This document shows, one piece after another, positions 4,885-45,805 of a stretch of DNA of 55,589 bases. A program made the translations under genes and the position numbers. The stretch spans positions 1-55,589 of the forward strand of contig CAZEFH010000005.1 in the NCBI GenBank assembly GCA_964511435.1, read 5' to 3'. The notes beneath the pieces were generated by a model. It was not told where the DNA came from. It worked only from the letters and a program-made list of their open reading frames with translations, and ran no database searches. Positions within the stretch are counted from its first letter, which is position 1. Each line of letters opens with the position of its first letter. Source of the DNA: an uncultured Candidatus Saccharibacteria bacterium (lineage in GTDB: Bacteria > Patescibacteriota > CPR2 > UBA1875 > CAIMLA01).

Positions 4885-5009
4885 AGATACATTATAGCAA
4901 AGACGAACTGGTCCCGAACCCCCGTAGGGGCCGGGACCTGCCTAGGCCCTGGGTGTTTAGCCCCGAGTTTTGGACTTCGTGGGGGTCTAGCCCACGCGAT
5001 TTTGGCCAA
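4881..5009 (-). CDS. Putative 42-aa small ORF (TTG start), GC-rich island 1
   Basis: SD GGAGGTGAT 7 nt upstream; MAKIAWARPPRSPKLGAKHPG...; runs through a hairpin, so weak. Confidence 0.3.
   Translation of the reverse strand: MAKIAWARPPRSPKLGAKHPGPRQVPAPTGVRDQFVFAIMYL
4910..4938 (-). terminator. GC-rich hairpin at 3' end of island 1
   Basis: GGTCCCG-aa-CCCC-cgta-GGGG-c-CGGGACC; no long U tract. Confidence 0.5.
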
Positions 5010-5028
5010 AAGCCGGATCACCTCCGAG

Positions 5029-5064
5029 TCAGAGACCGTTCTCGTGCTCTTGCCAGAGACTCAC
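5029..5064 (-). CDS. Putative 11-aa micro-ORF MSLWQEHENGL (GTG start)
   Basis: SD GGAGGG 6 nt upstream, just after previous stop. Confidence 0.25.
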   Translation of the reverse strand: MSLWQEHENGL

Positions 5065-5082
5065 TTCGGTCCCTCCCCTCGG

Positions 5083-5181
5083 CTAGTCGCCGATGTCAGT
5101 GCAACCGCTGTCCCTCTCCGACGGAGGGGTAGGCTGCGGCATTCCTGGGGGAATACCCCAGCCAGGCCTCTTCGAAGGCAT
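5083..5181 (-). CDS. Putative 32-aa Pro-rich small protein
   Basis: SD GGGAGGTGA overlaps stop of upstream ORF; MPSKRPGWGIPPGMPQPTPPSERDSGCTDIGD. Confidence 0.45.
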   Translation of the reverse strand: MPSKRPGWGIPPGMPQPTPPSERDSGCTDIGD

Positions 5182-5185
5182 CGCG

Positions 5186-5362
5186 TCACCTCCCGAACTT
5201 GCCGTTCTCAGCGGTGACCGTATAGCCACCTTGCGGATGACGAGTGAAGCCGTAGCTTGCCTTGCCGTTACCTTCAGACGGCTCGTGATGGTCCTGGCGA
5301 CGCCCAGTGGCGTCACGGGCCAGTCTCATCGACTGACCATTTTGCACAGTACGACTCTGCAT
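5186..5362 (-). CDS. Putative 58-aa small protein
   Basis: SD GAGGGG directly after stop of 104-aa ORF; MQSRTVQNGQSMRLARDATG...GYTVTAENGKFGR. Confidence 0.5.
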   Translation of the reverse strand: MQSRTVQNGQSMRLARDATGRRQDHHEPSEGNGKASYGFTRHPQGGYTVTAENGKFGR

Positions 5363-5372
5363 ACGTCCCCTC

Positions 5373-5687
5373 TCATCCGACGGCCATTCGCAAACGGAAG
5401 TCCGGTGTGATGATCAGCAGCCCATGTGGAAGCAGGTAACAACGCTTCTCGCTCTGATGAGCTGCTATGACAACCACACTGTGACCCCTCAGACTCACGG
5501 GAAGCTTTTTCATCTCCTTGTGGTCAAGATGGAACTTGTCCGGACCACACATCTCAGCAGTGACGCTTGTGATCCTTCGGGGACAACCAATCAGTTTGAC
5601 CTGATATGACTCCTCCCACAGCTTGGGATCAGCCCGTCGGGTCAGATTCATCCGATACAACAGTGACAGTTGCAGGCGAACTAGCAC
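5373..5687 (-). CDS. Hypothetical protein, 104 aa, first gene of GC-rich island 1
   Basis: GTG start with SD GGGAGGTG at 7 nt; AT-rich promoter-like region upstream. Confidence 0.6.
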   Translation of the reverse strand: MLVRLQLSLLYRMNLTRRADPKLWEESYQVKLIGCPRRITSVTAEMCGPDKFHLDHKEMKKLPVSLRGHSVVVIAAHQSEKRCYLLPHGLLIITPDFRLRMAVG

Positions 5688-5770
5688 GATGGACCACCTC
5701 CCAGGTACTCGTCAATGACATCACTTATAGTTTATAATCATTTCATAGATAAAGTCTAGAAAAGGAAATT

Positions 5771-7117
5771 ATGAATCCAGAAATTTTCAAAGCGTATGAC
5801 ATTCGAGGAATATATCCAACTGAGCTAAATGCAGAGGACGCAAAAAATATTGCTATGGCCTATGCCAGTTGGCTAAAACCAAAGAAAGTAGCCCTTGGTC
5901 GTGATGTCCGACTTTCTGGACCAGAACTTTGGCAGGCTGCGGCGGACGGACTTACTGAAATGGGTGTTGACGTTGTCGATATCGGCGTTATCAGTACAGA
6001 TATGCTATATTTTTCTGTCTCAAACTACGGATTTGACGGAGGGATTACACTATCTGCTTCACACAACGCCAAAGAGTACAATGGAATGAAGATGGTGCGG
6101 GAAGAAGCTCGTCCTATTTCAATTGATTCTGGTATAGCAGAAATCCGTGACCTTGCAATGCAGGGTGAATTTACGCCAGCCGAGGCTAAGGGCTCTATCA
6201 CAAAACTAGAAATTCTTGCTGATTACATTTCCAAGATGACATCATTTGTTAAGACAAATAAAATCAAGCCACTAAAAGTACTCGCAAACCCAAATTTTGG
6301 GGCCGCTGGTGCTGCTATTGAGAAATTAGCCGAAATATACAGTACAGAACTAACTAAACTAAACTTTGAACCTGATGGTAATTTTCCCAAGGGCAAGCCA
6401 GACCCGATGCAAGCCGCCGTTCGTGCCGAGACTGAAGAAATAGCAAAAAGCGGACACTTTGATTTCACCGCAATCTGGGATGCTGACGCAGACAGATGTT
6501 TCTTTTTCGATGAAAAGGGCAATTTTATACTGCCTTACTATATAACTGGTCTAATGATGGATTACTTTCTTGAGCAATACCCAAAAGTCACATTTGTAAT
6601 TGATCCACGTCTTGTCTGGATGCCTGAAAAAATTGCCTCCGAAAACACTGCACAAATCGCCATCAACAAATCTGGTCATTCATTTATAAAAGAGCGTATG
6701 CGTGATGAAGACGCGATATTCGGAGCCGAAACATCAGCGCATTACTACTTCAGAGACCTATGGTACACAGATAATGGGATGGTACCTTTCGTGATTATGC
6801 TTGAACTCGTATCGCAAAGTGATGTACCACTATCCGAGATGGTTAAAAAATATCAGAACATGTCATATGCGATAGAGGAAACCAACTTTATAGTTGAGAG
6901 TGTTCCTGACACTATTGAAAAAGTGAAGGCCGCCTTCCCAGGCGGAACAGAAAGCAATATTGACGGTATCTCAATCGAGTTTTCCAACTGGAGAATGAAT
7001 CTTCGTGGTTCCAATACTGAACCTGTGATAAGATTAAACATAGAAGCAAAAACGAAGGAACTGGCGGAAATAAAGCTCGCCGAACTCACGGAGGTAATAG
7101 GTGGGACTAAGGCATAA
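5771..7117 (+). CDS. manB: Phosphomannomutase/phosphoglucomutase
   Basis: IFKAYDIRG, catalytic SASHN, metal loop DADADR, GAETSAH, RGSNTEP. Confidence 0.95.
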   Translation: MNPEIFKAYDIRGIYPTELNAEDAKNIAMAYASWLKPKKVALGRDVRLSGPELWQAAADGLTEMGVDVVDIGVISTDMLYFSVSNYGFDGGITLSASHNAKEYNGMKMVREEARPISIDSGIAEIRDLAMQGEFTPAEAKGSITKLEILADYISKMTSFVKTNKIKPLKVLANPNFGAAGAAIEKLAEIYSTELTKLNFEPDGNFPKGKPDPMQAAVRAETEEIAKSGHFDFTAIWDADADRCFFFDEKGNFILPYYITGLMMDYFLEQYPKVTFVIDPRLVWMPEKIASENTAQIAINKSGHSFIKERMRDEDAIFGAETSAHYYFRDLWYTDNGMVPFVIMLELVSQSDVPLSEMVKKYQNMSYAIEETNFIVESVPDTIEKVKAAFPGGTESNIDGISIEFSNWRMNLRGSNTEPVIRLNIEAKTKELAEIKLAELTEVIGGTKA

Positions 7118-7472
7118 AAAAGACAAACCTGAACGTTACGACGAGGGACTGATTCGCGGTCGCAGAGCCCTCTTTATCGGTATTTTCCCGGTTTTAATCT
7201 TCCTAGGTACTATGGCTTTCGGTGCTTGGATTATTGTTGACTACTATAATAAGATTAGCGTCAACGAGGATGGTAGTGACGTCTGTAGGCTAGTACGCAA
7301 ACACTACCCCACATCCATCAAAGCCACTTATCCCTGTGACATCACTGACAAAGGTGATTTCTACTACGTGATTTTTAATCAAAATACAGGCGCTATGGGA
7401 GCTCCAGTCTATCTCAGCTTCAAAGTAATGAAGAAAGATAACAGTATTTCCCCAGCTTACGATATAAACTAA
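7101..7472 (+). CDS. Hypothetical membrane-anchored protein
   Basis: One hydrophobic helix (ALFIGIFPVLIFLGTMAFGAWIIV) then small domain with two Cys; start uncertain. Confidence 0.7.
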   Translation: MGLRHKKDKPERYDEGLIRGRRALFIGIFPVLIFLGTMAFGAWIIVDYYNKISVNEDGSDVCRLVRKHYPTSIKATYPCDITDKGDFYYVIFNQNTGAMGAPVYLSFKVMKKDNSISPAYDIN

Positions 7473-7481
7473 GGAATAATT

Positions 7482-8471
7482 ATGGCAAAAAAGCGTGTTT
7501 TTTCAGGAATTCAGCCTAGCGGCAATCTACATATCGGCAACTATCTTGGTGCCATCCATCAATGGGTGAAACTACAGGATGAACGTGAGAATATCTTCTG
7601 CATCGTGGACGAACATGCCATCACCGTACCACAAGACCCAGCCGATCTGCGTCGTCGCATTATCGAGCTCGCGAAAATTTATATCGCTGCTGGAATTAAC
7701 CCCGATAAGTCTGCCATCTTTGTCCAGTCATCTCGCCCAGAACACACCGAGCTTGGCTGGATTCTCAATAATTTCACCTACTTTGGCGAGCTATCTCGGA
7801 TGACACAGTTCAAGGACAAGGCGAAAAATGGTGGCGAAAATGTCTCCGTCGGTCTCTTCGATTACCCAGTACTGATGGCAGCTGATATTTTGCTTTACAA
7901 CACAGATGAAGTCCCTGTTGGCGACGATCAGAAACAACACGTCGAGATTTGTCGTGATATCGCAGAGCGTGTAAACAAACGTTATGACAAGAAGATTTTA
8001 CCTATTCCTGAGTTCACAACCAATAAAGAGGCGACCAGAATTATGAGTCTGACTGACCCTATCGCGAAGATGAGTAAATCGGACGAGAATCCGAAAAGCC
8101 GTATCGAAATTCTAGACACGCCAGATGACATTCGCAAAAAGTTCGCTAGTGCCGTCACCGACAGCGGTAACGAGATCAAGTTTGATATTGCTAACAAGCC
8201 AGGTATTTCCAACTTGCTCAACATTCTTTCTGCTTGTGGCGGTAAGTCGATTGCCGCGCTCGAGAAAGAATACCAACAAACTAGCTATGGTGATTTTAAG
8301 AAAGAAGTGGCAGAAGCCGTTATTGAACTGCTTGCACCATTTCAGGACAAATACGCCGAACTTTCAGACGAATATGTCGTCGAAGTCCTCCGCGATGGAG
8401 CAGAACGCGTAAAGCCGATGGCTCAAGAAACCTTGAAACGAGTAAAAGAAACTATCGGTCTCGGAATCTAA
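7482..8471 (+). CDS. trpS: Tryptophan--tRNA ligase
   Basis: SGIQPSGNLHIGNY, YPVLMAADILLY, VPVGDDQKQH, KMSKS. Confidence 0.98.
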   Translation: MAKKRVFSGIQPSGNLHIGNYLGAIHQWVKLQDERENIFCIVDEHAITVPQDPADLRRRIIELAKIYIAAGINPDKSAIFVQSSRPEHTELGWILNNFTYFGELSRMTQFKDKAKNGGENVSVGLFDYPVLMAADILLYNTDEVPVGDDQKQHVEICRDIAERVNKRYDKKILPIPEFTTNKEATRIMSLTDPIAKMSKSDENPKSRIEILDTPDDIRKKFASAVTDSGNEIKFDIANKPGISNLLNILSACGGKSIAALEKEYQQTSYGDFKKEVAEAVIELLAPFQDKYAELSDEYVVEVLRDGAERVKPMAQETLKRVKETIGLGI

Positions 8472-8483
8472 TATATAAACGGC

Positions 8484-8518
8484 GAAGGCCGGCTGCGCGA
8501 TTGCGCTAGCCGGCCTTC
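8484..8518. terminator. Bidirectional hairpin between trpS and convergent ORF
   Basis: GAAGGCCGGCT-GCGC-gatt-GCGC-t-AGCCGGCCTTC. Confidence 0.7.
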
Positions 8519-8781
8519 TTCTTGTTGCGACGTTCGATGGTGACTGTTGCAGTCACGCGGTCCGAGTCAATAGAGACCATGTCGTATGGTCCACTGGCAG
8601 TAGAGCCGTTCTGGCAGTACAATCTGCGGTCGTTACTTACGATGGCAGTGCCATCACCAAGTACTCGCACCAGACGGGGCGGAAGTACAGCCGCAAGCGC
8701 AGCTAGGAAGCTCACACCATCTGGGACATCAAGTCTCTGACTCCTCCCATCGTAAGTAACGATAGCACCTGACTCAAACAT
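8506..8781 (-). CDS. Hypothetical 91-aa protein, possibly beta-grasp (ubiquitin-like) fold; GC-rich island 2
   Basis: SD GAGGAGGTGA before ATG 8781; beta-beta-alpha-beta pattern, ends KKKAG. Confidence 0.65.
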   Translation of the reverse strand: MFESGAIVTYDGRSQRLDVPDGVSFLAALAAVLPPRLVRVLGDGTAIVSNDRRLYCQNGSTASGPYDMVSIDSDRVTATVTIERRNKKKAG

Positions 8782-8885
8782 ACACTCACCTCCTCGGCGA
8801 ATCGGAAACAAGAAGACTGCTTCTGCAGTGTGGTGATATTACTATTTACAATCTGAAATAGCAAGACTAACCCACGATAAAATAC

Positions 8886-8914
8886 TTGACAAATATGATA
8901 TATTATGCTAGAAT
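8886..8914 (+). promoter_or_regulatory. Sigma70 promoter for 8991 ORF
   Basis: TTGACA-N17-TAGAAT with TGn extended -10. Confidence 0.8.
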
Positions 8915-8990
8915 ATAGCACGAGTCGCACAAATCGTGCGTCTAGTGGGGAACGCTCCCTACACCATACGTCACAGATTGGAGCGTTGAC

Positions 8991-9305
8991 ATGAAGAGTC
9001 ACCCGTGGCTATACATCATTCTTCCTGCGTTCCTGGGGGTCATCGTGGCCCTTGCAGGAGCAAGCTGGGTCAGCAACGCCTACAGCCCGCGTAAGTGGGC
9101 GGAACAGGCACCGCTCAACCACTCTGTGGTCGGAAGTGCTGACCCATTCTGGACCAGGCTCGATGATGCTATCAAGTCATCGGATCGCGCCGGAGTTCCA
9201 ATGGACGAGTTGGTGACCATCATTCAAACGCGTCCTGATAATCCCAACCACGACCTGGTCCCGATACCCTACAACCAGTGGGTATCGGGCCAGTATGATC
9301 ACTAG
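8991..9305 (+). CDS. Hypothetical membrane-anchored/secreted protein, 104 aa
   Basis: N-terminal hydrophobic segment LYIILPAFLGVIVALAGASW; SD GGAG; GC-rich codons. Confidence 0.7.
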   Translation: MKSHPWLYIILPAFLGVIVALAGASWVSNAYSPRKWAEQAPLNHSVVGSADPFWTRLDDAIKSSDRAGVPMDELVTIIQTRPDNPNHDLVPIPYNQWVSGQYDH

Positions 9306-9312
9306 CGAAACG

Positions 9313-9486
9313 GCGGGATTCTGGCATGGGTGTTGCCCCTTGAGCCGCAAGCTCAAGGAAAAGGGCGGTCCATCCCGCCCTCCCGCTTACAATTTCCCTG
9401 CCCCCAGGGAGACGGCCGTACGGGAAACCCCTCCTCGTACGGCACGACACTTCACAGCCCTCAGCGCTTCGGCGTCTGAGGGCTGT
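9313..9486 (+). ncRNA. Densely structured 3' region (multi-hairpin), unassigned; last hairpin probably a terminator
   Basis: Five to six consecutive perfect stems, the last ACAGCCCTCAG-CGC-ttcg-GCG-t-CTGAGGGCTGT followed by TTCT. Confidence 0.4.
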
Positions 9487-9518
9487 TTCTATATATATAA
9501 CTTTGCTACAATAGTGAT

Positions 9519-10304
9519 ATGAAGAATTACTTACAAGAATCAGGACTCGACTTCTCCATTGGAGAAGATAAGCTCATTTATAAAAAAGAAGACTTTTCTC
9601 AGGCGGTTGACTGGATTAAAGACTATCAGTTTGCAAAATATGCCTACAAAGATCAATCCCAGGAATCCGGACCTACATATTTCGGTGTTCGATATATGGA
9701 AAGAACTGAAGATAAAGAGCTGCTACTAAATAATGGTATTATGGGTGACATTACTGTATTCCAGCCAGGTTTAGTCGGCGATGAATACGTCAAAACTGTC
9801 GGACACTATCACGGTCACACTGTTGATCAAAATACCTCCTATCCTGAGGTGTACCAAAATATTGCTGGCAAGGTAGAATACCTCCTACAAACTGAGCCAG
9901 ATAAAAACGGCGAGGTAGATGTGCTTTACGTCGTCACAGAGCCAGGTGATAAAGTGGTAATGCCACCCAATGTTGGTCATGTCAGTCTAAATGCCGGTGA
10001 CGATATAGCAGTCGAATGCGACCTCCAGAAACGTGATAATCCTGACGATTCCGAATATGGCGAATTCAAAGATTTTGTTGGTGGCGCACTTTATCGCACT
10101 AAGGATGGATTAGAAGAGAATCCTCACTATAAGATAAAGTCGCTACGCATCGTTCGCCCCCTTGAGAAGCCAGAGTGGGGCCTCACCAAAGAAAAACCGC
10201 TTTACACTTCGTTCACTGAGAACCCTGATAAGTTCAAATGGCTTACAGAGCCACAGAATTATGATTTCAATCTCGAGGAACTTTTCGAGGACATAGAGCT
10301 TTAA
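9519..10304 (+). CDS. Glucose-6-phosphate isomerase, cupin (archaeal PgiA-like) type
   Basis: DITVFQPG..GDEYVKTVGHYH, YPEVY, GDKVVMPPNVGHVSLN. Confidence 0.85.
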   Translation: MKNYLQESGLDFSIGEDKLIYKKEDFSQAVDWIKDYQFAKYAYKDQSQESGPTYFGVRYMERTEDKELLLNNGIMGDITVFQPGLVGDEYVKTVGHYHGHTVDQNTSYPEVYQNIAGKVEYLLQTEPDKNGEVDVLYVVTEPGDKVVMPPNVGHVSLNAGDDIAVECDLQKRDNPDDSEYGEFKDFVGGALYRTKDGLEENPHYKIKSLRIVRPLEKPEWGLTKEKPLYTSFTENPDKFKWLTEPQNYDFNLEELFEDIEL

Positions 10305-10359
10305 AATTACCCTGAAATCAGCTATAATACGAGCGTCCTGATTCGTCAGGACGCTTTTC

Positions 10360-10448
10360 GGAAGGATCGCATAGTTGGCCTAGTGCGCACGCTTGGAAAG
10401 CGTGTATACCGCAAGGTATCGAGGGTTCGAATCCCTCTCCTTCCGCCA
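10360..10448 (+). tRNA. tRNA-Ser (GGA)
   Basis: Cloverleaf, anticodon arm CACGC-TTGGAAA-GCGTG, long variable arm, GGTTCGAATCC, encoded CCA. Confidence 0.97.
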
Positions 10449-10479
10449 AAATGCCTCAACGCATGTTGAGGCATTTTTA
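10448..10479 (+). terminator. Intrinsic terminator after tRNA-Ser
   Basis: AAAATGCCTCAAC-gcat-GTTGAGGCATTTT plus T-run. Confidence 0.85.
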
Positions 10480-10529
10480 TTTCGAGCTCTGTCACGTATA
10501 ATAGATATGTAATTAAGGAGGACTCGGAA

Positions 10530-11333
10530 ATGCAGGTTGAAGGAAAAGTATTTGTCGTTACAGGTGCTGCTAGCGGAATGGGGAAAGAGATTACTCTTCA
10601 GCTACTAAAAAAAGGCGCCAAGGTGGCTGCGGTTGACCTCAAGGAAGAAGCGCTCACAGAACTAGTAGCAGCAGTGGGAAATCCCCATGAAAATCTTTCG
10701 ACATATGCGGTAAATGTGTCGGACAAGAAGGCTGTTGAGGCTTTGCCGGCCGCTGTAATCAAAGACTTCGGTGGGGTAGATGCCATTATCAATAATGCCG
10801 GCATCATTCAGCCATTTGTGAAAGTAAATGACCTAGACTATGATGCCATCGAGCGCGTAATGAACGTAAACTTCTACGGTGTCCTATACATGACTAAGGC
10901 GTTTCTACCATATCTACTAAAGCGTCCTGCGGCATATGTAGCCAATACTTCCAGTATGGGAGGCTTTCTACCAGTCCCAGGACAAGGAGTCTATGGAGCC
11001 TCAAAAGCAGCGGTAAAACTGATGACCGAGGCGCTCTATGCCGAACTAAAAGATACCAGTGTCGGAGTGTCTATCATTTTCCCGGGAGCTATCAACACTC
11101 ACATCACCGAGAACTCCGGTGTAAAGGCACCTAGTATGCCAAAGGGTGCCAAAGAATACAAAACTCTCAGTGCCGATAAGGCGGCAGCGATCATTATTGC
11201 CGGCATCGAGAAGAATCAACCACAAATTTTTGTGGGATCAGACTCGAAAATGATGAATTTGCTCTATCGCCTAAATCCTGTAGGCGCAACTAATCTTATC
11301 GCCAAGCAAATGAAAGACCTACTAGGTAAATAA
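10530..11333 (+). CDS. Short-chain dehydrogenase/reductase
   Basis: TGAASGMG, NNAG, YGASK catalytic motif. Confidence 0.95.
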   Translation: MQVEGKVFVVTGAASGMGKEITLQLLKKGAKVAAVDLKEEALTELVAAVGNPHENLSTYAVNVSDKKAVEALPAAVIKDFGGVDAIINNAGIIQPFVKVNDLDYDAIERVMNVNFYGVLYMTKAFLPYLLKRPAAYVANTSSMGGFLPVPGQGVYGASKAAVKLMTEALYAELKDTSVGVSIIFPGAINTHITENSGVKAPSMPKGAKEYKTLSADKAAAIIIAGIEKNQPQIFVGSDSKMMNLLYRLNPVGATNLIAKQMKDLLGK

Positions 11334-11334
11334 G

Positions 11335-11664
11335 ATGGAATACAGTAGAGAAGAAATCGAATCAAAGGCAATTAGGATTTCTGCCACAGATGGTGACAAG
11401 GAAATCGGCCATGCATTCTTATTCTTAATAACAAACGACTTACATAAAGAGCCATATGGCCTGCTAGAAGACCTCAAAATTGAGGAGGATTTCCAGGGTA
11501 ATGGCTATGGCCCAAAACTAACGGAAGAAATAATCCGGGTCGCCAAGGAAAGAGGATGCTACAAGCTTCTTGCAACCAGCCGTTTTAGCCGAGAACACGT
11601 TCATCGAATGTATGAGAAACTCGGCTTTGAGAAAAACGGCTATGATTTCAGAATGAATTTATAA
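11335..11664 (+). CDS. GNAT family N-acetyltransferase
   Basis: FQGNGYG acetyl-CoA motif A, YEKLGF. Confidence 0.85.
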   Translation: MEYSREEIESKAIRISATDGDKEIGHAFLFLITNDLHKEPYGLLEDLKIEEDFQGNGYGPKLTEEIIRVAKERGCYKLLATSRFSREHVHRMYEKLGFEKNGYDFRMNL

Positions 11665-11682
11665 ATTAATAAGAGCAATAAG

Positions 11683-12114
11683 ATGTCGGAGTATCCTGAT
11701 AATAATATAGAACACCTAATCAATAGTGCTTTTGAAGATACAAATCCTGCACTTATTCATGAAATGGCAGAAAAACCAGAGCGTATAATCGCCATTAATA
11801 GTTATCTTGAACTCGCTCGTACTGAACTCGCTAAGCTTCAAGAAAAATACAACATCTCGAAGGCAAATGTCGACACCAACGAAGAAATGGAACTAAGACA
11901 TGAGATTAGCGCTACTTCGCTCGCCGTTGCAGTTTTCGAAGATCTTCATGCAAAAGGCTACCAATACAAGGACGAAATAGTCTCTGCAATTGATAATTCT
12001 ATCGAAATTGCACGCACAAATTATGACAGTAATGACCCCATGCTTGGAAGGATGATTGACGTAGCAGACAAGGCAAAACAGATCATTCAAGAAGCTGAAG
12101 GATATACGCAATGA
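11683..12114 (+). CDS. Hypothetical helical protein
   Basis: 143-aa ORF in operon-like spacing; no motif recognised. Confidence 0.7.
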   Translation: MSEYPDNNIEHLINSAFEDTNPALIHEMAEKPERIIAINSYLELARTELAKLQEKYNISKANVDTNEEMELRHEISATSLAVAVFEDLHAKGYQYKDEIVSAIDNSIEIARTNYDSNDPMLGRMIDVADKAKQIIQEAEGYTQ

Positions 12115-12347: not shown

Positions 12348-12425
12348 TTTCCTTCAACTTTGTTATTATTTGTACTATAATCACCGCACGGAGGGAAACG
12401 AGAGAGCGATTGGAGTGAGTTCAAT

Positions 12426-12833
12426 ATGAACACACCTAGCCTTGTCTTGGTGGTTTGGGTTTTCTACCACCAGGTCACGAACGATGCTGATCGTGGAGTG
12501 ATTCGCGCGAGGATTCTCAGTGGCCTCCAGACCATCTTCGGCATCGCGCCGGAAAACGTGGAGGTACATTTCCAGTCCTTGGAGCTACCTGAAGCTGGAT
12601 TCCGCTTCCACATTGAACACAGCAACTTGGTTTCGGCCGAGCTAGCTGATTCCATCAGTCAGAATCTGACTCGATCTGGGATCCGTTGGTGTGCAACACA
12701 ACTCGACGAGACAACCTGCTTCGAGTCGTCCTGCACTGTCGGTCCGATCACCGGGATCGCCCCCATCGGGAAGACCTTCAGCTTCCCGATGACGTCCGGT
12801 GAGGCACCGCTCGAAGCGTTCAGCTGCATCTAG
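12426..12833 (+). CDS. Hypothetical protein, GC-rich island 3
   Basis: Own TATAAT at 12376-12381, SD GGAGTGAG, downstream GC hairpin 12853-12884; tautomerase-like segment IFGIAPENVEVHF. Confidence 0.7.
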   Translation: MNTPSLVLVVWVFYHQVTNDADRGVIRARILSGLQTIFGIAPENVEVHFQSLELPEAGFRFHIEHSNLVSAELADSISQNLTRSGIRWCATQLDETTCFESSCTVGPITGIAPIGKTFSFPMTSGEAPLEAFSCI

Positions 12834-12950
12834 CGCGCACTCTCGCTCATCACTGGCCCGAACCCGCACCCGCGGTTTCGGGCCAGGGCACTTTATACAC
12901 TATAAATAATTCAGTTTATGCGTTATAATCCAAGCACGAAAGGGGACTAA

Positions 12951-13370
12951 ATGAAAATTGTAATCGGTGGCTCTATGGGTTTTGCCAAAGAACAAGTTGA
13001 AGCAAAAAGAGTATTGGAAGGAGCCGGACACGAAGTTCTAGTTACTGAAAATATTGAAAAATACGTTGATTCTCCAGCGATAAAGTCCAGTTTCGAAGAA
13101 GAACTAAAGATCTCACTAGAATACGACATTATGCGTGATTTTTTTAACAAAATTGCAGAATCTGATGCGTTTTTAGTAATGAATTACCCCAAAAAAGGAA
13201 TTGATGGCTACTTGGGCGCCTCAGTCTTAATGGAGATGGGGCTTGCCTATTATTTGAAAAAGAAAGTCTTTCTTTTATTCCCCGTTGACAAAGAACAAGG
13301 CTACGCGCTGGAGTCTGCGATAATTAATCCACTGATTCTTAATGGAGATATTACAAACATTAGGGGCTAA
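12951..13370 (+). CDS. Hypothetical protein, nucleoside 2-deoxyribosyltransferase-like fold
   Basis: MKIVIGGSM, ESDAFLVMN, GYLGASVLMEMGLAY pattern. Confidence 0.7.
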   Translation: MKIVIGGSMGFAKEQVEAKRVLEGAGHEVLVTENIEKYVDSPAIKSSFEEELKISLEYDIMRDFFNKIAESDAFLVMNYPKKGIDGYLGASVLMEMGLAYYLKKKVFLLFPVDKEQGYALESAIINPLILNGDITNIRG

Positions 13371-39260: not shown

Positions 39261-39293
39261 CGCACTTTCTCCTTAGTTGTAAGTATAACAAAA

Positions 39294-39316
39294 TAGAGGC
39301 CAAAAGGCCTCTATTT
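39294..39316 (-). terminator. Terminator after pnp
   Basis: AATAGAGGCC-aaaa-GGCCTCTATT. Confidence 0.75.
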
Positions 39317-39335
39317 AACTAGCTTAGTTAGAAAA

Positions 39336-41444
39336 TTACTTTTCTTCTTTCGGTAGAGCTGCCTTCATCGACAGATTGTTGCGGCCCTGAGAGTCTATCT
39401 CAGTCAGCTTTACGGTCACAGCCTGGCCTTCTTTGAGAACGTCAGCCACCTTTTCGACACGTTCGTTACCAATCTGAGAAACGTGTACGAGACCTTCTTT
39501 GCCTGGCATAAACTCAACAAAAGCACCAAAGTCCATCAGTTTGACGACTTTGCCTTGGTAAATCTTACCTACCTCTGGCTCAGCCACAATTGATTTGATC
39601 CAGTTCACGGCCCTGTCAGCAGCTTCGCCATCAACCGCAGCCACAACGACTGTGCCATCATCTTCGATATCAATCTCTACACCCGTCTCAGCGATAATCT
39701 TGTTAATCATCTCGCCACCCTTACCAATAACTTCACGAATTTTGTCGGGGTTAATCTGGAAAGAGGTGAGACGAGGAGCATAAGGAGACATTTCTGCCTT
39801 TGGTGTCTTGATAGCAGCATCCATGACATCAAGGATTTCTAGTCTTGCCTTGACGGCTCGTTCAATTACTTCCTTAAGGAAGTTGATTGTGAGACCTTTA
39901 ACCTTAATATCCATTTGGATTGCAGTCACACCATTACGAGTACCAGCAAGTTTGAAGTCCATATCTCCTGCGAAGTCCTCGGCGCCCTGAATGTCGGTCA
40001 AGATTTCATATTTCTTTGAGAGATCACCATCGGTAGTCATCAGACCCATCGCAATACCTGCGACCGATGCCTTGATCGGGACACCGGCATCCATAAGTGC
40101 CAGTGATGAGCCACAAACAGAACCCATTGAGCTTGAACCGTTACAACTTAGGATCTCTGAGGCAATGCGAATAGTATATGGGAAATCCTTTTCGTCAGGC
40201 AGTACTGCTTCAAGGGCCTTTTCTGCTAAGAATCCGTGACCGATAGCCCTTCGCCCGGCACCGATACGGCCAGTTTCTCCATAGCTCGCTGGTGTATCGA
40301 TATAGTGGTGCATATACCGCTTATTAAAATCTTGATCCATAGACTCGACCATCTGAGCCTTGGAAGGGGAGGCAAGAGTTACGACTGAAAGGACTTGGGT
40401 CTGACCACGCTGGAAAAGTCCGGAACCATGAGTACGTGGCAGTAATCCAACTTCAGCTGATAGTGTACGTACTTCATCCATCGCACGATGGTCTGGTCGG
40501 TTACCGTCCTCCAGGATTGCACGACGTACCTCATTCTTAATAACTTTTTCGAAAGCTTCTGAGATTGCGGCGCCCTCAAATTGATCCTCAAACTCAACTT
40601 GTACTTCATCTTCAAGATCAGCTAGTAGAAGATTGCGGGCAATCTTGTCTTTGTGACGAATGCTGTCACCAAGTTTACCGGTGAGAAACTTCGAAACTGC
40701 AGCATAAGTGTCTTCATCAGGAAGCTGGAGTGAGTATTCCATCTCTTTCACGGAGAGTTCTTTAGCCATCTTCTTCTGAATCTCGATCGATGACTGCATC
40801 GCTTTATGAGCAAGCTCGAGCGCTTCAGTAATCGTAGCTTCTGGAATTTGATGAGCCTCACCCTCGATCATCGTAATTGCTTCCGCAGAACCTGCAACCA
40901 AGAGGTCGAGAGTACTCAGTTCTTCCTGTTCTTTTGTAGGATTAATAATCAGTTCTCCGTCTACCTGACCCACACGCACTGCAGCTAGTGGCCCCTCAAA
41001 AGGAGCACCGGTCAGCATGAGAGCTGCTGATGCAGCATTGAGACCCAGTACAGCTGGGTCGATAGTGTAGTCCAGTGATAATGGTGAAATAATAATCTGA
41101 ACTTCATTCAGATAACCCTTGGGAAACATAGGACGGATCGGACGGTCAATCATGCGCGATCGCAAAACAGCTAGCTCAGATGGGCGTCCTTCACGCTTGA
41201 TGAAGCGAGAGCCGCTAATCTTACCCGTAGCATACCATTTGTCCTGGAACTCAACAGAAAGAGGGAAGAAACTCTGTCCTTCTTTCACCTTTTTGCTAAT
41301 TACTACTGTAGCGAGTACAACTGAGTCGTTGTATTTCACCACCACGGCACCATCGGCAAGGAGGCCCATTTTGCCTACCTCGTATACCATCTTGGTACCA
41401 TTAAATTCGGTCTCAAATGCCGAAACCTTACCTTCAAAGTTCAT
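39336..41444 (-). CDS. pnp: Polyribonucleotide nucleotidyltransferase
   Basis: RMIDRPIRP, FQRGQTQ, GSSSMGSVC, DMDFK.AG, KH and S1 domains. Confidence 0.98.
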   Translation of the reverse strand: MNFEGKVSAFETEFNGTKMVYEVGKMGLLADGAVVVKYNDSVVLATVVISKKVKEGQSFFPLSVEFQDKWYATGKISGSRFIKREGRPSELAVLRSRMIDRPIRPMFPKGYLNEVQIIISPLSLDYTIDPAVLGLNAASAALMLTGAPFEGPLAAVRVGQVDGELIINPTKEQEELSTLDLLVAGSAEAITMIEGEAHQIPEATITEALELAHKAMQSSIEIQKKMAKELSVKEMEYSLQLPDEDTYAAVSKFLTGKLGDSIRHKDKIARNLLLADLEDEVQVEFEDQFEGAAISEAFEKVIKNEVRRAILEDGNRPDHRAMDEVRTLSAEVGLLPRTHGSGLFQRGQTQVLSVVTLASPSKAQMVESMDQDFNKRYMHHYIDTPASYGETGRIGAGRRAIGHGFLAEKALEAVLPDEKDFPYTIRIASEILSCNGSSSMGSVCGSSLALMDAGVPIKASVAGIAMGLMTTDGDLSKKYEILTDIQGAEDFAGDMDFKLAGTRNGVTAIQMDIKVKGLTINFLKEVIERAVKARLEILDVMDAAIKTPKAEMSPYAPRLTSFQINPDKIREVIGKGGEMINKIIAETGVEIDIEDDGTVVVAAVDGEAADRAVNWIKSIVAEPEVGKIYQGKVVKLMDFGAFVEFMPGKEGLVHVSQIGNERVEKVADVLKEGQAVTVKLTEIDSQGRNNLSMKAALPKEEK

Positions 41445-41490
41445 ATGAACTCCCTTCTACCCGTCCGTAGCCTTTGGCGCCGGAGGGTCT

Positions 41491-41545
41491 GAATAGGAGC
41501 CAGGGTAAGAAGGCACTGCTGTCTTCCTGTCTCTGATTCCTATTC
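41491..41545 (-). promoter_or_regulatory. Long irregular hairpin in pnp leader (candidate RNase III site)
   Basis: GAATAGGA/TCCTATTC outer stem with inner CAGGG/CTCTG and GAAGGCA/TGTCTTC. Confidence 0.5.
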
Positions 41546-41599
41546 ACTTTTACTTAATGTGCAAATTAACCCCGACCGAAGTCGGGGCAGATTTACATA

Positions 41600-41869
41600 T
41601 TATTTACGAAGACCAAGCTTCTTGATAACAGTGTCGTATGCTTCTTTGTTCTTCTTCGACAGATAGTCGAGAAGACGACGACGCTTACCTACCATTTTTA
41701 GTAGTCCACGGCGACTATGCTCATCCTTTTTATGAGTCTTCAGATGCTCAGTGAGCTGTTTAATTTTCTCGGTAAAAATCGCAACCTGAACCTCTGGAGA
41801 ACCAGTGTCCTTATCGCTTCGTCCGATTTCTTTGACGATCTTCGCCTTTTCATCTTTTTGGATTGCCAT
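41600..41869 (-). CDS. rpsO: 30S ribosomal protein S15
   Basis: [35 protein letters not shown]. Confidence 0.98.
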
Positions 41870-41960
41870 TGCATCCCTTTCTTGCCCGTCCCGAAGTTGT
41901 ATACCTCTAGGAGGGTGTTAATATTTGATGTCTATATTATACTCGATTTGGGTAAATTTT

Positions 41961-42635
41961 TCAACCTTCAAGGCTATTTACGGCTTCCTCAACTGTAATG
42001 GCATTTTCAATATTATATTCGCCAATCTGAGTACGGCGTAATTCAGTCAAGTACGCACCGGTACCGAGTGCTTTCCCCATGTCTTCACCCAGAGTCCGAA
42101 TATATGTCCCGGAAGAACATTTGACTCGAATTTTCAGTTCTGGAAAATCGTAATCTATTACATTTAATTCATAAATAGTGACTTTTCTGGGCTTTAGCGC
42201 AACTTCTTTACCTTCGCGGGCGAGCTTGTACGCTCGCTTGCCGTCCACCTTCATGGCAGAGTAGATTGGTGGTGTTTGTGAAATTTCGCCGATAAAGCTT
42301 TGCAAAATATGGTCAATTTTCTCTTCTGCTGGTTGTTGATAGTTAGTTGTTGACTGATTTATCTCTCCTTCCGGGTCCCCAGTCGTACTCGTAAAACCAA
42401 GCTTCAAAGTGGCCTCATATTCCTTGTCCTGTTTCATAAATTCGTCTTGTCTCTTCGTGGCGTCTTTCCCAACAAGCACAATGAGTAGGCCTGTTGCAAA
42501 GGGGTCAAGTGTTCCAGCATGACCAACCTTAGTATTTCTGTCACCAGTAACTTTTCTAGCGGCACCACGAATCTTCGCCACCACATCAAATGATGTCCAT
42601 TCCGCCGGCTTATCTATAAGGAGTATATTATTCAT
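41961..42635 (-). CDS. truB: tRNA pseudouridine(55) synthase
   Basis: DKPAEWTSFDVV, GHAGTLDPFATG, PPIYSAMKVDG, SGTYIR. Confidence 0.97.
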   Translation of the reverse strand: MNNILLIDKPAEWTSFDVVAKIRGAARKVTGDRNTKVGHAGTLDPFATGLLIVLVGKDATKRQDEFMKQDKEYEATLKLGFTSTTGDPEGEINQSTTNYQQPAEEKIDHILQSFIGEISQTPPIYSAMKVDGKRAYKLAREGKEVALKPRKVTIYELNVIDYDFPELKIRVKCSSGTYIRTLGEDMGKALGTGAYLTELRRTQIGEYNIENAITVEEAVNSLEG

Positions 42636-42801
42636 AAATTCATTCTCTCATTATTGTTCAAACATGGCGAGGACTAAAGATTCAGGCCAGTATATTATAA
42701 ATGACCATAACAAACGAAAAGCGGCCCAGACGCAATTGCATCTTGGCCGCATGACCCTTTGGTGGCCCGGTCCTGTCACGGGTCCACCACCTACAGTGAG
42801 C

Positions 42802-43128
42802 CTACCTCGGGAGCCAGAACGCAAGTTCCTGAAGCAGTCGCTTCTTCGGCATCGCGCCGACGACCTTCTTGACGACTTTGCCATCGGCGAAAACCAGGAC
42901 GGTCGGTATCGACAAGATGTCGTACTTTCCGGCGATACCTGGCTCGAGGTCTACGTTCAGTCGCCCAATACTGAGATCGGGGTACTCCGTGGCAACTTCC
43001 CGCCACACCGTCTCCATCATACGGCACGGGCCGCACCAGGGTGCCCAGGTGTCGAGGACGAAGGGTTTCTCACGCGTGGCGGTCAATTCGTCGAAGTTGT
43101 CAGCCGTGACCTCCGTGATGCTATTCAT
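42802..43128 (-). CDS. trxA: Thioredoxin (start re-assigned to ATG 43128)
   Basis: WAPWCGPC, LNVD, SIPTV cis-Pro; SD GGGAGGT. Confidence 0.95.
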   Translation of the reverse strand: MNSITEVTADNFDELTATREKPFVLDTWAPWCGPCRMMETVWREVATEYPDLSIGRLNVDLEPGIAGKYDILSIPTVLVFADGKVVKKVVGAMPKKRLLQELAFWLPR

Positions 43129-43168
43129 GCAGTTCACCTCCCTCTTCTTACTGAGAGTTCATCGGTTG

Positions 43169-43297
43169 TCAGTACTCCTCGGGCTCGAAGCGCTCCTGCA
43201 GTTCTTGCCACTTCGCCACCAAGGTGCGCCAATGCGGCAGAACGAAGGCAACTGCGATGAGGCCGCAGACAATCCACGGTGTCCAGCTAGTCTTCAT
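43169..43297 (-). CDS. 42-aa small membrane protein (below ORF-track cutoff)
   Basis: MKTSWTPWIVCGLIAVAFVLPHWRTLVAKWQELQERFEPEEY; start overlaps upstream ORF end. Confidence 0.65.
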   Translation of the reverse strand: MKTSWTPWIVCGLIAVAFVLPHWRTLVAKWQELQERFEPEEY

Positions 43298-43547
43298 CTG
43301 GTTCCACCGTCCTCCAGCAGAAGCCCTCGCTTCCACTGAATTCGTCGGATTTGCCCCGCTTGTCCTTGAGGTCCATCATGTCGGAGAAGACCTCAACGGT
43401 GGCGCCCGAAGGCACGCCAAGCTCGTCAGCGAGCCTCCGCAGTGAACCAGGACCATCGCTGTAAACGACGCCACCGTCAGTGAAGCACATTGCTTGTCGC
43501 ACGCCGTTAGCGAGTGTCGCTACCAGCCAGAACAACTTCGCCTGCAT
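43287..43547 (-). CDS. Hypothetical protein, 86 aa
   Basis: SD AAAGGAG; operon position; GC-rich codons. Confidence 0.7.
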   Translation of the reverse strand: MQAKLFWLVATLANGVRQAMCFTDGGVVYSDGPGSLRRLADELGVPSGATVEVFSDMMDLKDKRGKSDEFSGSEGFCWRTVEPDED

Positions 43548-43562
43548 GACCCGCTCCTTTCA

Positions 43563-43814
43563 CTACTCGGTGAGACCTACGTAGGCCCACCTGCCATAGT
43601 CTCCGAAGAACTTCCAGCGGCCGTCAGACAGCCGGATAGGAGCCCTCGGCGACACGTTGTAGAACGAGTACATACCGGTCTCGGTAAAGAAGGTTATGGT
43701 ACCCTTCCCCATGTAGTCCACCCTGACATCGACGATGGTACCACGGTACCGCAACCGATTCTCAAAGGTGTACAACTGGAGACCGGTGAAGCCTTTCTTC
43801 TTGATTGCCTTCAA
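43563..43814 (-). CDS. Hypothetical beta-rich protein, 83 aa (TTG start)
   Basis: SD GAGGAGG; operon position. Confidence 0.7.
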   Translation of the reverse strand: MKAIKKKGFTGLQLYTFENRLRYRGTIVDVRVDYMGKGTITFFTETGMYSFYNVSPRAPIRLSDGRWKFFGDYGRWAYVGLTE

Positions 43815-43839
43815 CTCGGCCTCCTCTCACTGTGCGTAG

Positions 43840-44085
43840 CTACTGCTCCTTGATCGTGCTGACGCAGTCGGCGCAGACCGGGCGGTTCTTGATCTTCGTG
43901 GTCTCGACGTCCGTAGCACCACAGATGGCACACGAATCCTTGTGTTTCGTGAGGATGATGCGCTCGCCTTCGACGAAGATGGCAACCGGGTCCTTGACGT
44001 TGATGCCAAGGGTCCGGCGCAGCTCCATCGGGATGACGATCCGACCGAGGTCGTCGACACGACGAACGATTCCTGTATCATGCAT
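43840..44085 (-). CDS. abrB: AbrB/Abh-family transition-state regulator with C-terminal Zn ribbon (start re-assigned to 44085)
   Basis: DTGIVRRVDDLGRIVIPMELRRTLGI closely matches Bacillus AbrB N-domain; CAIC...CADC; SD AAGGAG. Confidence 0.9.
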   Translation of the reverse strand: MHDTGIVRRVDDLGRIVIPMELRRTLGINVKDPVAIFVEGERIILTKHKDSCAICGATDVETTKIKNRPVCADCVSTIKEQ

Positions 44086-44188
44086 GTAGCATTCTCCTTC
44101 GGTATCCCAGTTGTGACGGTACATTTTGCCGGTTCATCTTGAACTGACATATAGGGCCTGAGCTTCAGGCTCGCTATCTCACTTCAAG

Positions 44189-45805
44189 TTATTTCCAGAT
44201 ATTTCGGTCTATTGGCTGATTGCCTTTTTCATCAAGCGCCTTACCAGGAGTATAGTCAAACATAACTTCCCCAAGCTTACGCAGGGATTCCTTTTTATCT
44301 TTTACTTCTTCAACGTCAATATTGGGTGTTTCTTTGGTGATAGGGCCACCTGATTCAATCTCATTATCTATCGAAATGAGAGCATTTTCTATATCATCGT
44401 TGGTTGCTGTATTCAAATCACCTGATACCGTATTCACCTGTTGCGTTTCATGACTAGAACTAAAGATTTCCTCATAGCTAGGCTCGATATCAGTAGTTTC
44501 TGTACCTTCAAGAGCTTTCTCGATTGATAATAGGTCACTTAAATCTTCGGTATTTTCTGCTTCAAGCTTCACCTCCACAACCACATCCTCTACGAGACTA
44601 TTCGGTGCCGTAACTGGGACTTTCTCCTCTACTACCGCTTCCTGCACCATCTGTGTTCTTGTCGCCGATGTAACTAGCTGCTTATCCCGATATTCTGCAA
44701 TTTTCGTAAGTATTTTCGCTTTCTGTGTCGCTATGGTCGCATTCGGCAGTGTAAAGGCAGCTTCTAGTGCCTTGCCATGACCACCAAAGAGCTCTGCTAT
44801 AGTAAGCACTTCCTGACCACCGAGACCCTTCATCATTCCTACGAGCTTACCTTTTTCCTCAACAAGCACTAGCACTATGTCAGTACCAGGAGCACTAGCA
44901 AGAAGCTCATCGAGAACTCCCTTAACATTATCAGCAGTTGCTCCAGCTTCAGCAAGATCATCAGCAACAATGCTCGAGACCACCATACGGTGTTTATGAT
45001 TATATTCAATATTTGAAAGCACTTTGCCCCAGAGTTTCAATGTTGAAAGAGGACGCGTCTTGTACAGGTTTTGAATAATTTCCTGTTGGCGTGCTCCAGC
45101 TGCGAGCATCTGAGCTGAGATGGTAAGAGACTTTGGAGTTGTCCCAACATTTTTAAAGCTAGCAGTATCTGCGATGAGGCCCGTAAGCAGACAAGTCGCA
45201 ACGTCGGCGGTAAAGTTATTTGGCCCCATCGCCTCGATGATTGAAACAAGAATCTCTGCTGTTGATGTGGCGGTCATATCTACGAGATTGACGGTACCGA
45301 AGTATTCATTGCCACTATGGTGATCAATGTTTATGATTGGCACTTCGAAGAATAGTTCTGTAAACTTGTCGTAGACACTATCTATCTTCTCCACGTCCGG
45401 AGTATCAAGCACAAATATCAGGTCATAGTGATAATTACCTGCTACAATCTTGAGGTCTTTGGCTTCGAGCAGCTTTCCCTTCGGAGATATAACAATACTA
45501 ATGACACCATCGTCTTCGTTATAGCCAATTTTCTCTATATCAGTCTTTTTTTTATCAATCTGAACTATGAGGTCGCGTGCCGGTACATCTCGCTGAACTT
45601 TTTCAATTCCAGGAAGAAAGGTGAGAGGCTGGGCAATATCATCTGATAGCACAAGGCTAACTTCCTTACCCTGAGACGCAAGGACCTGTTCAAGAGCAAG
45701 CATAGAACCGAGAAGGTCGCCATCAGGACTCTTGTGACCAACTATCAGGATTCTTTGGTTGTTTTTAATCAGCTCCGCTATTTGCTGTTTTGGTGATAGC
45801 TCCAT
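44189..45805 (-). CDS. DHH family phosphoesterase (NrnA-like) with long acidic C-terminal tail
   Basis: HKSPDGD, IDHH, DTASF motifs; promoter TTGACA-N17-TATGAT at 45876-45848; start re-assigned to 45805. Confidence 0.85.
   Translation of the reverse strand: MELSPKQQIAELIKNNQRILIVGHKSPDGDLLGSMLALEQVLASQGKEVSLVLSDDIAQPLTFLPGIEKVQRDVPARDLIVQIDKKKTDIEKIGYNEDDGVISIVISPKGKLLEAKDLKIVAGNYHYDLIFVLDTPDVEKIDSVYDKFTELFFEVPIINIDHHSGNEYFGTVNLVDMTATSTAEILVSIIEAMGPNNFTADVATCLLTGLIADTASFKNVGTTPKSLTISAQMLAAGARQQEIIQNLYKTRPLSTLKLWGKVLSNIEYNHKHRMVVSSIVADDLAEAGATADNVKGVLDELLASAPGTDIVLVLVEEKGKLVGMMKGLGGQEVLTIAELFGGHGKALEAAFTLPNATIATQKAKILTKIAEYRDKQLVTSATRTQMVQEAVVEEKVPVTAPNSLVEDVVVEVKLEAENTEDLSDLLSIEKALEGTETTDIEPSYEEIFSSSHETQQVNTVSGDLNTATNDDIENALISIDNEIESGGPITKETPNIDVEEVKDKKESLRKLGEVMFDYTPGKALDEKGNQPIDRNIWK

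Follow-up and report, generated by a model that had tools for sequence, protein, structure and literature searches.

GC-rich micro-islands between core operons of a Saccharibacteria contig: probable long-lived slots for captured accessory genes

Introduction

Flexible genomic islets, phage morons and chromosomal integron cassettes are the described systems closest to the four GC-rich islands that we report here for a contig of an uncultured Candidatus Saccharibacteria bacterium (assembly GCA_964511435.1, contig CAZEFH010000005.1; "the window" is this entire contig of 55,589 nt). Flexible genomic islets lie at fixed sites between syntenic core genes, carry variable cargo of atypical composition with many orphans, and show evidence of allele exchange. 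All this applies to the sites of the islands (slots), one of which, slot 4, is empty in the relative L047. However, the slots are only 0.4-1.4 kb long, are without an integrase, tRNA or convincing att site, and persist across lineages saturated at silent sites, with conserved promoter/leader and terminator frames. Phage morons resemble them in anatomy (a promoter of their own, a single small gene or a few, termination by a hairpin) and in a composition foreign to the surroundings, but the slots are found in a cellular chromosome between housekeeping operons and not in a prophage, and the AbrB protein encoded in one of them is ~49% identical to proteins of Firmicute phages (phrog_4681) versus 88% to products of chromosomal genes. 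Chromosomal integron cassettes have in common with them small, often orphan open reading frames (ORFs), atypical composition, a conserved structured end and cargo turnover; in contrast to such cassettes, the slots are dispersed, have their own promoters and Shine-Dalgarno (SD) sequences, show no IntI or attI, and end in slot-specific elements rather than in a shared attC family. The slots are thus a tiny, integrase-free, long-lived form of flexible genomic islets with conserved expression frames.

With their tiny genomes, Saccharibacteria live as obligate epibionts, and the islands bear on how such organisms acquire functions and whether genes reach them from their Actinobacteria hosts. We propose, with a probability of roughly 60%, that the islands are persistent flexible slots holding captured high-GC accessory cargo between core operons. 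The evidence includes the clear capture of a regulator from Actinomycetota-type bacteria and the probable older capture of a thioredoxin, both in slots surviving deep divergence. In the proposed mechanism, each slot would be a self-contained expression unit in which an AT-rich promoter/leader is followed by small SD-led genes, between one and five in number, and by a hairpin terminator rich in GC. Both ends, the promoter/leader as well as the terminator/tail, would be inherited and conserved clade-wide, and the cargo between them would be gained, replaced and lost. This cargo would be GC-rich mainly through capture from high-GC bacteria and would then drift slowly to the 39% silent-site GC of the genome, the young genes being the most and the old ones the least GC-rich.

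Composition and gene signals of the islands

The contig averages 44.4% GC (standard deviation of 150-nt windows, 5.8%). With the GC profile smoothed at 150 nt and a threshold of 54% GC, exactly four long GC-rich segments were revealed:

4888-5640, island 1, 58.3% GC
8523-9452, island 2, 53.9% GC, split by an AT-rich divergent promoter at ~8812-8990
12459-12874, island 3, 57.9% GC
42740-44089, island 4, 58.1% GC

The remaining segments with at least 54% GC are just 62-115 nt long each. The first-pass annotation, made from the letters alone, had recognized these islands as distinct from the core genes and had assigned 62-67% GC to them by hand counting. The distinction is confirmed by the GC profile and by the codon-position values given below; the hand counts stand as local peaks (up to 0.61 in 300-nt windows) and not as island means, which are 54-58%. 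The GC content at third codon positions (GC3) of the eight island genes, read in the correct frames, is 0.54, 0.67, 0.68, 0.77, 0.77, 0.70, 0.77 and 0.79, compared to a mean of 0.415 (standard deviation 0.05, maximum 0.54) for 56 core genes. At second positions (GC2), the values are 0.44 for island and 0.35 for core genes.

The strong SD sites noted earlier were likewise found: SD sequences of at least 5 nt (including AGGAGGTGA and GGAGGTGA) precede five of the eight island genes, the proportion among core genes being 25%. As had been remarked, core genes can look leaderless: several that come first in their operon have TATAAT ~7 nt upstream of the ATG. Every island terminates in a GC hairpin; the U tracts, which had been described as weak or missing, are usable at some of them (42721-42750 followed by TTTTCGTTTGTT; 9452-9487 followed by TTTCT). 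A strong consensus match was found for one promoter only.

Conserved slots with changing cargo

The comparison set comprised five relatives, all of them distant: GCA_964501135.1 (loci L001 and L127), L130, L131, L132 and L047. L130, L131 and L132 were found through the PRC-barrel protein; in a metagenome scan for relatives, the DHH protein as a query gave no match, and the PNPase query succeeded. The closest relative found was GCA_964501135.1, whose core proteins are 62-94% identical to those of the window. The identity of four-fold degenerate sites in conserved codons between the two is 0.26-0.33 versus 0.26-0.29 expected by chance, and the silent sites are therefore saturated. Saturation is mutual among all five genomes concerned (window, L001, L130, L131 and L132). 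Even so distant a genome has GC-rich small genes in the same slots, i.e., between the genes for the PRC-barrel protein and phosphomannomutase (PMM; slot 1), TrpS and GPI (slot 2), and DHH and TruB (slot 4).

The features of slot 1 in the window are as follows:

4885..5770, minus strand, island 1, the full PRC-barrel/PMM intergenic slot (from the GC profile)
5373..5687, minus strand, slot-1 gene, a 104-aa ORF with the SD GGAGGTG (from ORF and SD analysis)
5083..5362, minus strand, two more short SD-led ORFs, putative (58 aa at 5186-5362; 32 aa at 5083-5181)
4885..5034, minus strand, conserved 3' module with a terminator-like hairpin at 4910-4938, directly before the leaderless PRC promoter
5696..5743, divergent (no single strand), promoter/leader common to the slot-1 gene and PMM, 83-93% identical in L130, L131 and L132

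The PRC/PMM gap of L001 has 57-61% GC, and a GC-rich gene for 102-120 aa (102-112 aa in L130-L132) is located there on the PRC strand in L001, L130, L131 and L132. The proteins from L001, L131 and L132 form a family with 39 invariant columns in the three-sequence alignment. The 104-aa ORF of the window agrees with this family (W-Q-[IL]-S-x-GGCCQLD...PVEVF...VWVVP) in position, strand and size. It looked homologous by eye as well, but this reading was rejected, as hhalign (E value 0.09) did not demonstrate homology.

In slot 2, the following features were distinguished:

8506..8781, minus strand, island 2a gene, 91 aa, perfect SD AGGAGGTGA, member of a fast-evolving clade-wide family (…GP[FY]…V.A.V…NKKKA[GS])
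8886..8914, plus strand, promoter of the gene at 8991, TTGACA-17-TAGAAT with TG, within the AT-rich divergent region 8812-8990
8991..9305, plus strand, island 2b gene for a 104-aa protein with an N-terminal transmembrane segment, forming the divergent pair of island 2 with the 91-aa gene
9306..9490, plus strand, structured non-coding tail of island 2, 185 nt, ending in the terminator 9452-9487

In the TrpS/GPI gap of L001, the tail is present together with a homologue of the minus-strand gene and a gene for a membrane protein. The 91-aa protein matches the profile of its counterparts from L001, L131 and L132, in all three of which the slot-2a family is present, over the full length (hhalign probability 94%, E value 1.4e-7). 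The positional counterparts of the 2b protein (101 aa in L001, 133 aa in L131) are 22-26% identical. A pyruvate kinase gene with normal GC is found in or beside slot 2 in L001 (11492-12895), L132 (478-1881) and L130 (2-913), either after the small minus-strand gene or directly after TrpS, and is not found there in the window and L131; slot 2 thus also gains or loses ordinary genes.

Slot 4 is occupied in the window by a five-gene minus-strand operon (abrB, two orphans of 83 and 86 aa, a 42-aa membrane peptide, thioredoxin) followed by two hairpins:

43840..44085, minus strand, gene 1, abrB-type regulator, 81 aa, with a C-terminal CxxC…CxxC tail (PF04014 8e-12; phrog_4681 1.6e-30)
43563..43814, minus strand, gene 2, 83-aa orphan, 0.69 GC at four-fold sites (GC4), absent from L127
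43287..43547, minus strand, gene 3, 86-aa orphan (homologue in L127: 77 aa, 42% identity over 55 aa)
43169..43297, minus strand, gene 4, 42-aa membrane peptide (homologue in L127: 43 aa, 61% identity)
42802..43128, minus strand, gene 5, thioredoxin (Trx), 108 aa, WCGPC, SD GGAGGTGA, GC3 0.77 (PF00085 1e-24)
42716..42790, minus strand, tail immediately ahead of the truB promoter; of its two hairpins, the second forms an intrinsic terminator together with TTTTCGTTTGTT after it

The DHH/TruB gap of L127 holds six small genes with a GC content of 0.55-0.60 and a GC3 of 0.65-0.80 between flanks of 0.45-0.47. Three of them are shared with the window, namely those for Trx (60% identity), the 42/43-aa peptide and the 86/77-aa protein. 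In place of abrB and the 83-aa gene, L127 has an unrelated 104-aa gene, and it carries two additional genes, of 92 and 66 aa. L047, which is more distant, has an empty slot. In this locus (41% GC background), a 55% GC gene for an NMO/FabK-like enzyme and a GC-rich gene for a 122-aa membrane protein (2856-3944 and 4510-4878) lie next to DHH; GC-rich cargo extends accordingly beyond orphans and beyond the slots of this clade. The PRC/S6 gap holds a further GC-rich orphan in L130 (5917-6357, 146 aa) and L131 (10662-11087, 141 aa), with a GC3 of 0.66-0.69, and neither the window nor L132 has a gene there; homology between the L130 and L131 genes was not evident from BLAST.

Slot genes evolve much faster than their flanks: between L001 and L131, PMM is 87% and g7101 92% identical, compared to 39% for slot 1, 61% for slot 2a and 24% for slot 2b. 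The slot ends (promoter/leader and tails) are 72-96% identical and are better kept than the cargo. The ORFs beside the conserved promoter/leader 5696..5743 are not alignable, and the region 8877-8987 is ~72% identical in L001 and L131. To speak of four discrete inserts, as in the earlier annotation, is hence misleading: three of the four segments are ancient slots where cargo turns over inside conserved promoters and terminators; the synteny comparison proposed there placed these three in relatives saturated at synonymous sites.

The slot-1 genes of L131 and L132 are 73% identical, with a four-fold site identity of 0.46 (n=46), which is above random, while their PMM proteins are only 58% identical. 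For L131 and L001 (slot 1, 39%) the pattern is opposite to that of the flanking PMM. As judged from these conflicting relationships, alleles appear to have been exchanged between lineages at slot 1. Such exchange is also the basis of another explanation, in which the slots are recombination hot spots for Saccharibacteria alleles and are enriched in GC by GC-biased gene conversion; the conserved frames could serve as homology arms, and the organisms are naturally competent. We regard this as quite improbable, as the composition switches within <100 nt at promoters and terminators, the flanking core genes, where heteroduplexes are expected, show no GC gradient, and non-homologous cargo is unable to form the mismatched heteroduplex required. 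For PMM itself (window 5771-7117), the identity is 87% for L001-L131 and 58% for L131-L132, in conflict with 79% and 83%, respectively, for TrpS, suggesting that core genes of the PMM region have also recombined.

The conservation of the tails raises the question of structured RNA. The 3' module of slot 1 (4885..5034) is 73% identical to L001 7441-7586, and indels disrupt the frame of a 42-aa ORF in it. The tail of island 2 is 83% identical to that of L001 and folds with z-scores of -4.4 to -5.0 (fold z-scores were computed in a sampled design across the window), and its terminator stem is preserved by compensatory changes across the window, L001 and L131. Structured non-coding RNA genes, with ORFs incidental to the high GC, might therefore make up the islands or, at a minimum, island 1 and the tails. 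It fits with this that the ORFs of island 1 overlap on both strands and have odd compositions, and that the tails of islands 1, 2 and 4 outlast the ORFs. However, Rfam 15 gave no match to any island at gathering thresholds or even at E<=1, four GGAGGTG(A) sites, each with a start codon after it, are present on the minus strand of island 1, slot 1 of the relatives is clearly protein-coding, and Trx, AbrB as well as the slot-2a family are genuine proteins. An RNA-only nature of the islands is, in our opinion, very unlikely.

Origin of abrB, thioredoxin and the orphan genes

The AbrB protein of island 4 belongs to the AbrB/SpoVT family (PF04014 score 45.3, cut-off 24.7; TIGR01439 score 28.8, cut-off 28.3) and is an ordinary full-length member of it, with about 900 homologues, 81 aa long and 72-88% identical. 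Names are attached only to those from a Coriobacteriia metagenome-assembled genome (MAG) and from 'Actinobacteria bacterium HGW-Actinobacteria-7'. The gene is 88% (amino acid) and 83% (nucleotide) identical to its homologue in L133, which belongs to a genome with 69.8% GC, and the similarity is confined to the ORF. The two best matches, whose loci have 66-70% GC, and the Coriobacteriia copy (MAG GCA_013336165.1) are all embedded in the context rsmI-abrB-metG-tatD-rpfB-like-ksgA, a neighborhood beside metG/rsmI that is also known from Bacillus (abrB-metS). With such chromosomal regulators the window protein shares its length of 81 aa, 75-88% identity, the SpoVT-AbrB N-domain and the CxxC…CxxC tail; unlike them, it is encoded out of the native context, as the first of five genes in a GC-rich operon of a genome with 44% GC.

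The third-position identity of abrB, 0.63, is unsaturated and equals the value between both high-GC genomes, and the tip branch of the gene in the tree is ordinary. The gene is missing from the L127 island. Since third positions are unsaturated, similarity is limited to the ORF and the branch is ordinary, these comparisons show abrB to have been captured from a high-GC Coriobacteriia-type lineage of Actinomycetota; its arrival was fairly recent, well after the split of the window and L127 lineages. Little GC has been lost since (GC4 0.78-0.83 in donor-type genomes, 0.75 in the window). The idea of a life-stage programme involving AbrB, which the first-pass annotation had raised as an alternative to capture, is not supported, as AbrB is recent and missing from the sister island and a strong consensus promoter is present only once. 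Two other contexts for the regulator were rejected. A type II toxin-antitoxin system would require a partner, and the downstream 83-aa protein has no family, having given no match in Pfam, PHROG, NCBIfam, PADLOC, phage or plasmid sequences, and donor-type abrB stands alone between rsmI and metG. For a phage origin, the similarity of AbrB to phage proteins is too low, the 83-aa orphan matched neither phages nor plasmids, and the tail was not found in viral contigs.

The thioredoxin satisfies both family models (TIGR01068 97.5, cut-off 96.8; PF00085 86.7, cut-off 23.5) and has the WCGPC motif. The proteins most similar to it (60-67%) cluster in a very tight family, to which the copies of the window and L127 attach by very long branches; the window protein is 65-67% identical to the tight family and 60% to the L127 copy. 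One member of the tight family adjoins trxB in a 67% GC genome (context DUF6049, HypF), and the one other Patescibacteria thioredoxin seen (L057) is only 37% identical. A cluster look-up for this family yielded no names of organisms, and the ranking of PDB entries leans weakly to actinobacterial proteins. The exact sequences of Trx and of PMM gave no record. Capture of trxA from a high-GC donor, in an older event followed by fast evolution, is probable from these alignments. The phylogenies proposed for the two genes have given an ordinary branch for abrB and, for Trx, a long one off a tight family. Capture from a high-GC donor, one of the two origins considered in the annotation, is upheld for abrB and probable for trxA; we infer a foreign origin for the orphans.

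The donor is plausibly the host, as Actinobacteria are what Saccharibacteria in culture grow on (PMC10633639). Should the host turn out to be the donor, the capture would be a notable counter-example to the report for TM7x (PMC7427843), discussed below. A more far-reaching version, which we consider rather doubtful, is that the slots are an integrase-free, expression-ready channel from host to epibiont: DNA of the actinobacterial host would be recruited by natural competence into slots framed by a conserved promoter/leader and a conserved terminal element, such as the tail of island 4, and exchanged between lineages, the tails would anchor recombination or give rise to regulatory RNAs from the 3' UTR, and selection on the transcripts would help to keep the GC content.

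GC excess and gene age

For each slot gene, we calculated the GC4 offset, i.e., the GC content at four-fold sites minus that of the core genes of the same genome. Genes that are unique or present in two genomes have offsets of +0.18 to +0.36 (12 of 13 at least 0.20), and members of families present in three or more genomes of -0.03 to +0.26 (at least 0.20 in 2 of 12). This gradient fits repeated capture followed by slow amelioration and argues against a constant force holding slot genes at one composition. Horizontally transferred genes are said to ameliorate in this way according to the concept of Lawrence and Ochman, and the slot genes conform to it in that the silent-site excess is largest in recent or least shared genes and smallest in old families. 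They differ from it in that the decay is slow, with +0.2 to +0.36 GC4 left after ~1 or more silent substitutions per site; an added constraint may slow the loss of GC in island genes.

Several observations weigh against captured cargo as the full explanation. The island 4 genes shared with L127 have a GC4 of 0.59-0.76 in both genomes, despite ~1 or more substitutions per silent site, and the mean offset of the old families is still ~+0.12. The excess retained lies at the upper edge of a rough neutral estimate of amelioration, so that a maintaining force may contribute. The polarised substitutions in abrB comprise 11 GC>AT and 3 AT>GC changes, in the direction of decay, but the control branches are equally skewed. 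A donor has been demonstrated for abrB alone, the taxonomy of the Trx donor relies on one gene context and the weak PDB ranking, and for six of the eight island proteins, which are orphans, no homologue outside the clade was found. For TM7x, a strong signal of host-derived genes has been reported to be lacking (PMC7427843). Finally, islands 2 and 3 fold with z-scores of -2.3 to -3.4, i.e., beyond what their composition predicts, compared to -0.2 for core genes. This better-than-composition folding suggests selection on RNA, and selection on RNA structure may thus add to the GC-richness of the islands.

The same data can be read as GC-richness that is intrinsic and maintained in fast-evolving small genes or transcripts, either by mRNA structure or by a force delimited by the transcript, with captures like that of abrB as a minority. 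Besides the folding of islands 2 and 3, values of -3 to -5 occur at several spots in islands 1 and 4. Furthermore, five lineages that are mutually saturated retain GC-rich cargo in the same slots, the GC-rich stretch starts past the promoter and stops at the terminator, and the non-coding tails are both GC-rich and strongly conserved. However, the GC4 excess varies, being -0.03 to +0.07 in several members of old families and highest in the youngest genes; island 4 is the most GC-rich and yet its coding part has an unremarkable structure (mean z-score -0.9); the composition of abrB is accounted for by its donor; and there is no known mechanism that raises GC inside transcript limits. We consider an intrinsic origin of the GC-richness unlikely on balance, although it merits serious attention.

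Entry of the cargo and integrity of the contig

Scans of the island proteins against Pfam, PHROG, NCBIfam and PADLOC, and of the flanking genes against Pfam, revealed no integrase, recombinase or transposase. Among the islands only island 1 is bracketed by a repeat that could be taken for att sites, an imperfect one of 22 nt (TCATAGATA…; 18/22) located exactly at its edges (4881-4902 and 5743-5764); both copies are within the PRC and PMM promoter regions, the repeat is absent from the slot in L001, and it may be due to chance or promoter similarity. No island adjoins a tRNA gene: ARAGORN found only three tRNA-Ser genes in the window, all outside the islands. IS-like inverted repeats bracketing the islands, as expected for IS elements or MITEs, were not detected, and the similarity between islands is limited to one 17-nt chance match. 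Integron cassettes do not fit either, since the terminal hairpins are slot-specific and no integrase is present within the window. The window scans thus bear out the earlier statement that integrases and IS ends are missing; as to att repeats, no convincing ones were found. What the islands do share with genomic islands is an atypical composition combined with a patchy distribution (slot 4 empty in L047; island 3 absent from L001 and L131). No island protein matched the PADLOC defence models.

As mobility genes are missing, entry by natural transformation and subsequent recombination into tolerant intergenic slots would be the probable route. Saccharibacteria are naturally competent in a comEC-dependent manner, and cassettes integrate at intergenic sites by recombination (PMC10633639). 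The conserved slot frames may act as homology anchors for exchange among Saccharibacteria lineages. If the pattern holds genome-wide, such slots would mark the entry and turnover of accessory genes, probably for host interaction, in Candidate Phyla Radiation (CPR) genomes, amelioration would provide a dated series of acquisitions, and the slots would be candidate neutral or expression-ready insertion sites.

The contig derives from a metagenome, and its AbrB and Trx resemble the products of high-GC genes; the islands could in principle be assembly or binning chimeras that join actinobacterial reads to a Saccharibacteria contig, which the annotation had named as one of two findings that would overturn it. 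Nevertheless, homologous islands fill the same slots in four other, independent assemblies, and a sediment DNA run contains short contigs that agree without error within island 1, across the PMM junction (5625-5775) and in trx. A chimera is unlikely for these two reasons. In addition, the abrB DNA is only 83% identical to the nearest donor-like gene, and each island would require two precise breakpoints, one at a promoter and one at a terminator. Taken together, we give this explanation hardly any credence.

Further features of the islands

Island 3 differs from the other islands in its distribution:

12376..12888, plus strand, island 3, with a TATAAT -10 box at 12376-12381, a 135-aa orphan at 12426-12833 and a hairpin at 12853-12886

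It is absent from L001 and L131, where other genes occupy the region. No real homologue of its orphan was found among 1.84 billion representatives; the sole match, to a low-complexity repeat in a 1213-aa Ig-like protein, was judged weak and rejected. The mean fold z-score of the island is -2.5. A 13-nt inverted repeat (92% complementary; 12348-12360 and 12994-13006) brackets island 3, with one arm in the next gene, and is probably due to chance.

In island 1, the stretch 5083..5362 with the two putative ORFs has no counterpart in the relatives, and its sense strand reaches a fold z-score of -3.5. In island 2, a hairpin (8484-8518) overlaps the 3' end of the 91-aa gene. Foldseek searches of the orphans, as proposed in the first-pass annotation, were performed for two structure models; these are of low confidence (pLDDT 62 for the slot-1 protein and 56 for the slot-2a protein) and gave no match with E<1 in the PDB.

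The contig end (55535-55589) resembles a tRNA-like or tmRNA 3' end; the similarity is weak (tmRNA model positions 314-374, E value 0.022; tRNA-derived Rfam model, E value 7e-5).

No RNA runs matching islands 1 and 2 were listed. For island 4, a 230-nt contig from wastewater RNA-seq covers 43040-43267 (trx and the 42-aa gene) with 1 mismatch, which hints at transcription of this stretch. The 74-nt tail of island 4 is ~96% identical to L127 6338-6411, with the adjoining synonymous sites randomised. One copy is present in the window; of all the other loci fetched, L127 alone contains it, and it was not found in viral contigs. The conservation of its primary sequence exceeds the needs of a terminator, and the tail might be a binding site for a protein or a small RNA derived from the 3' UTR. 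The orphan families and these sequence-conserved tails are targets for functional study.

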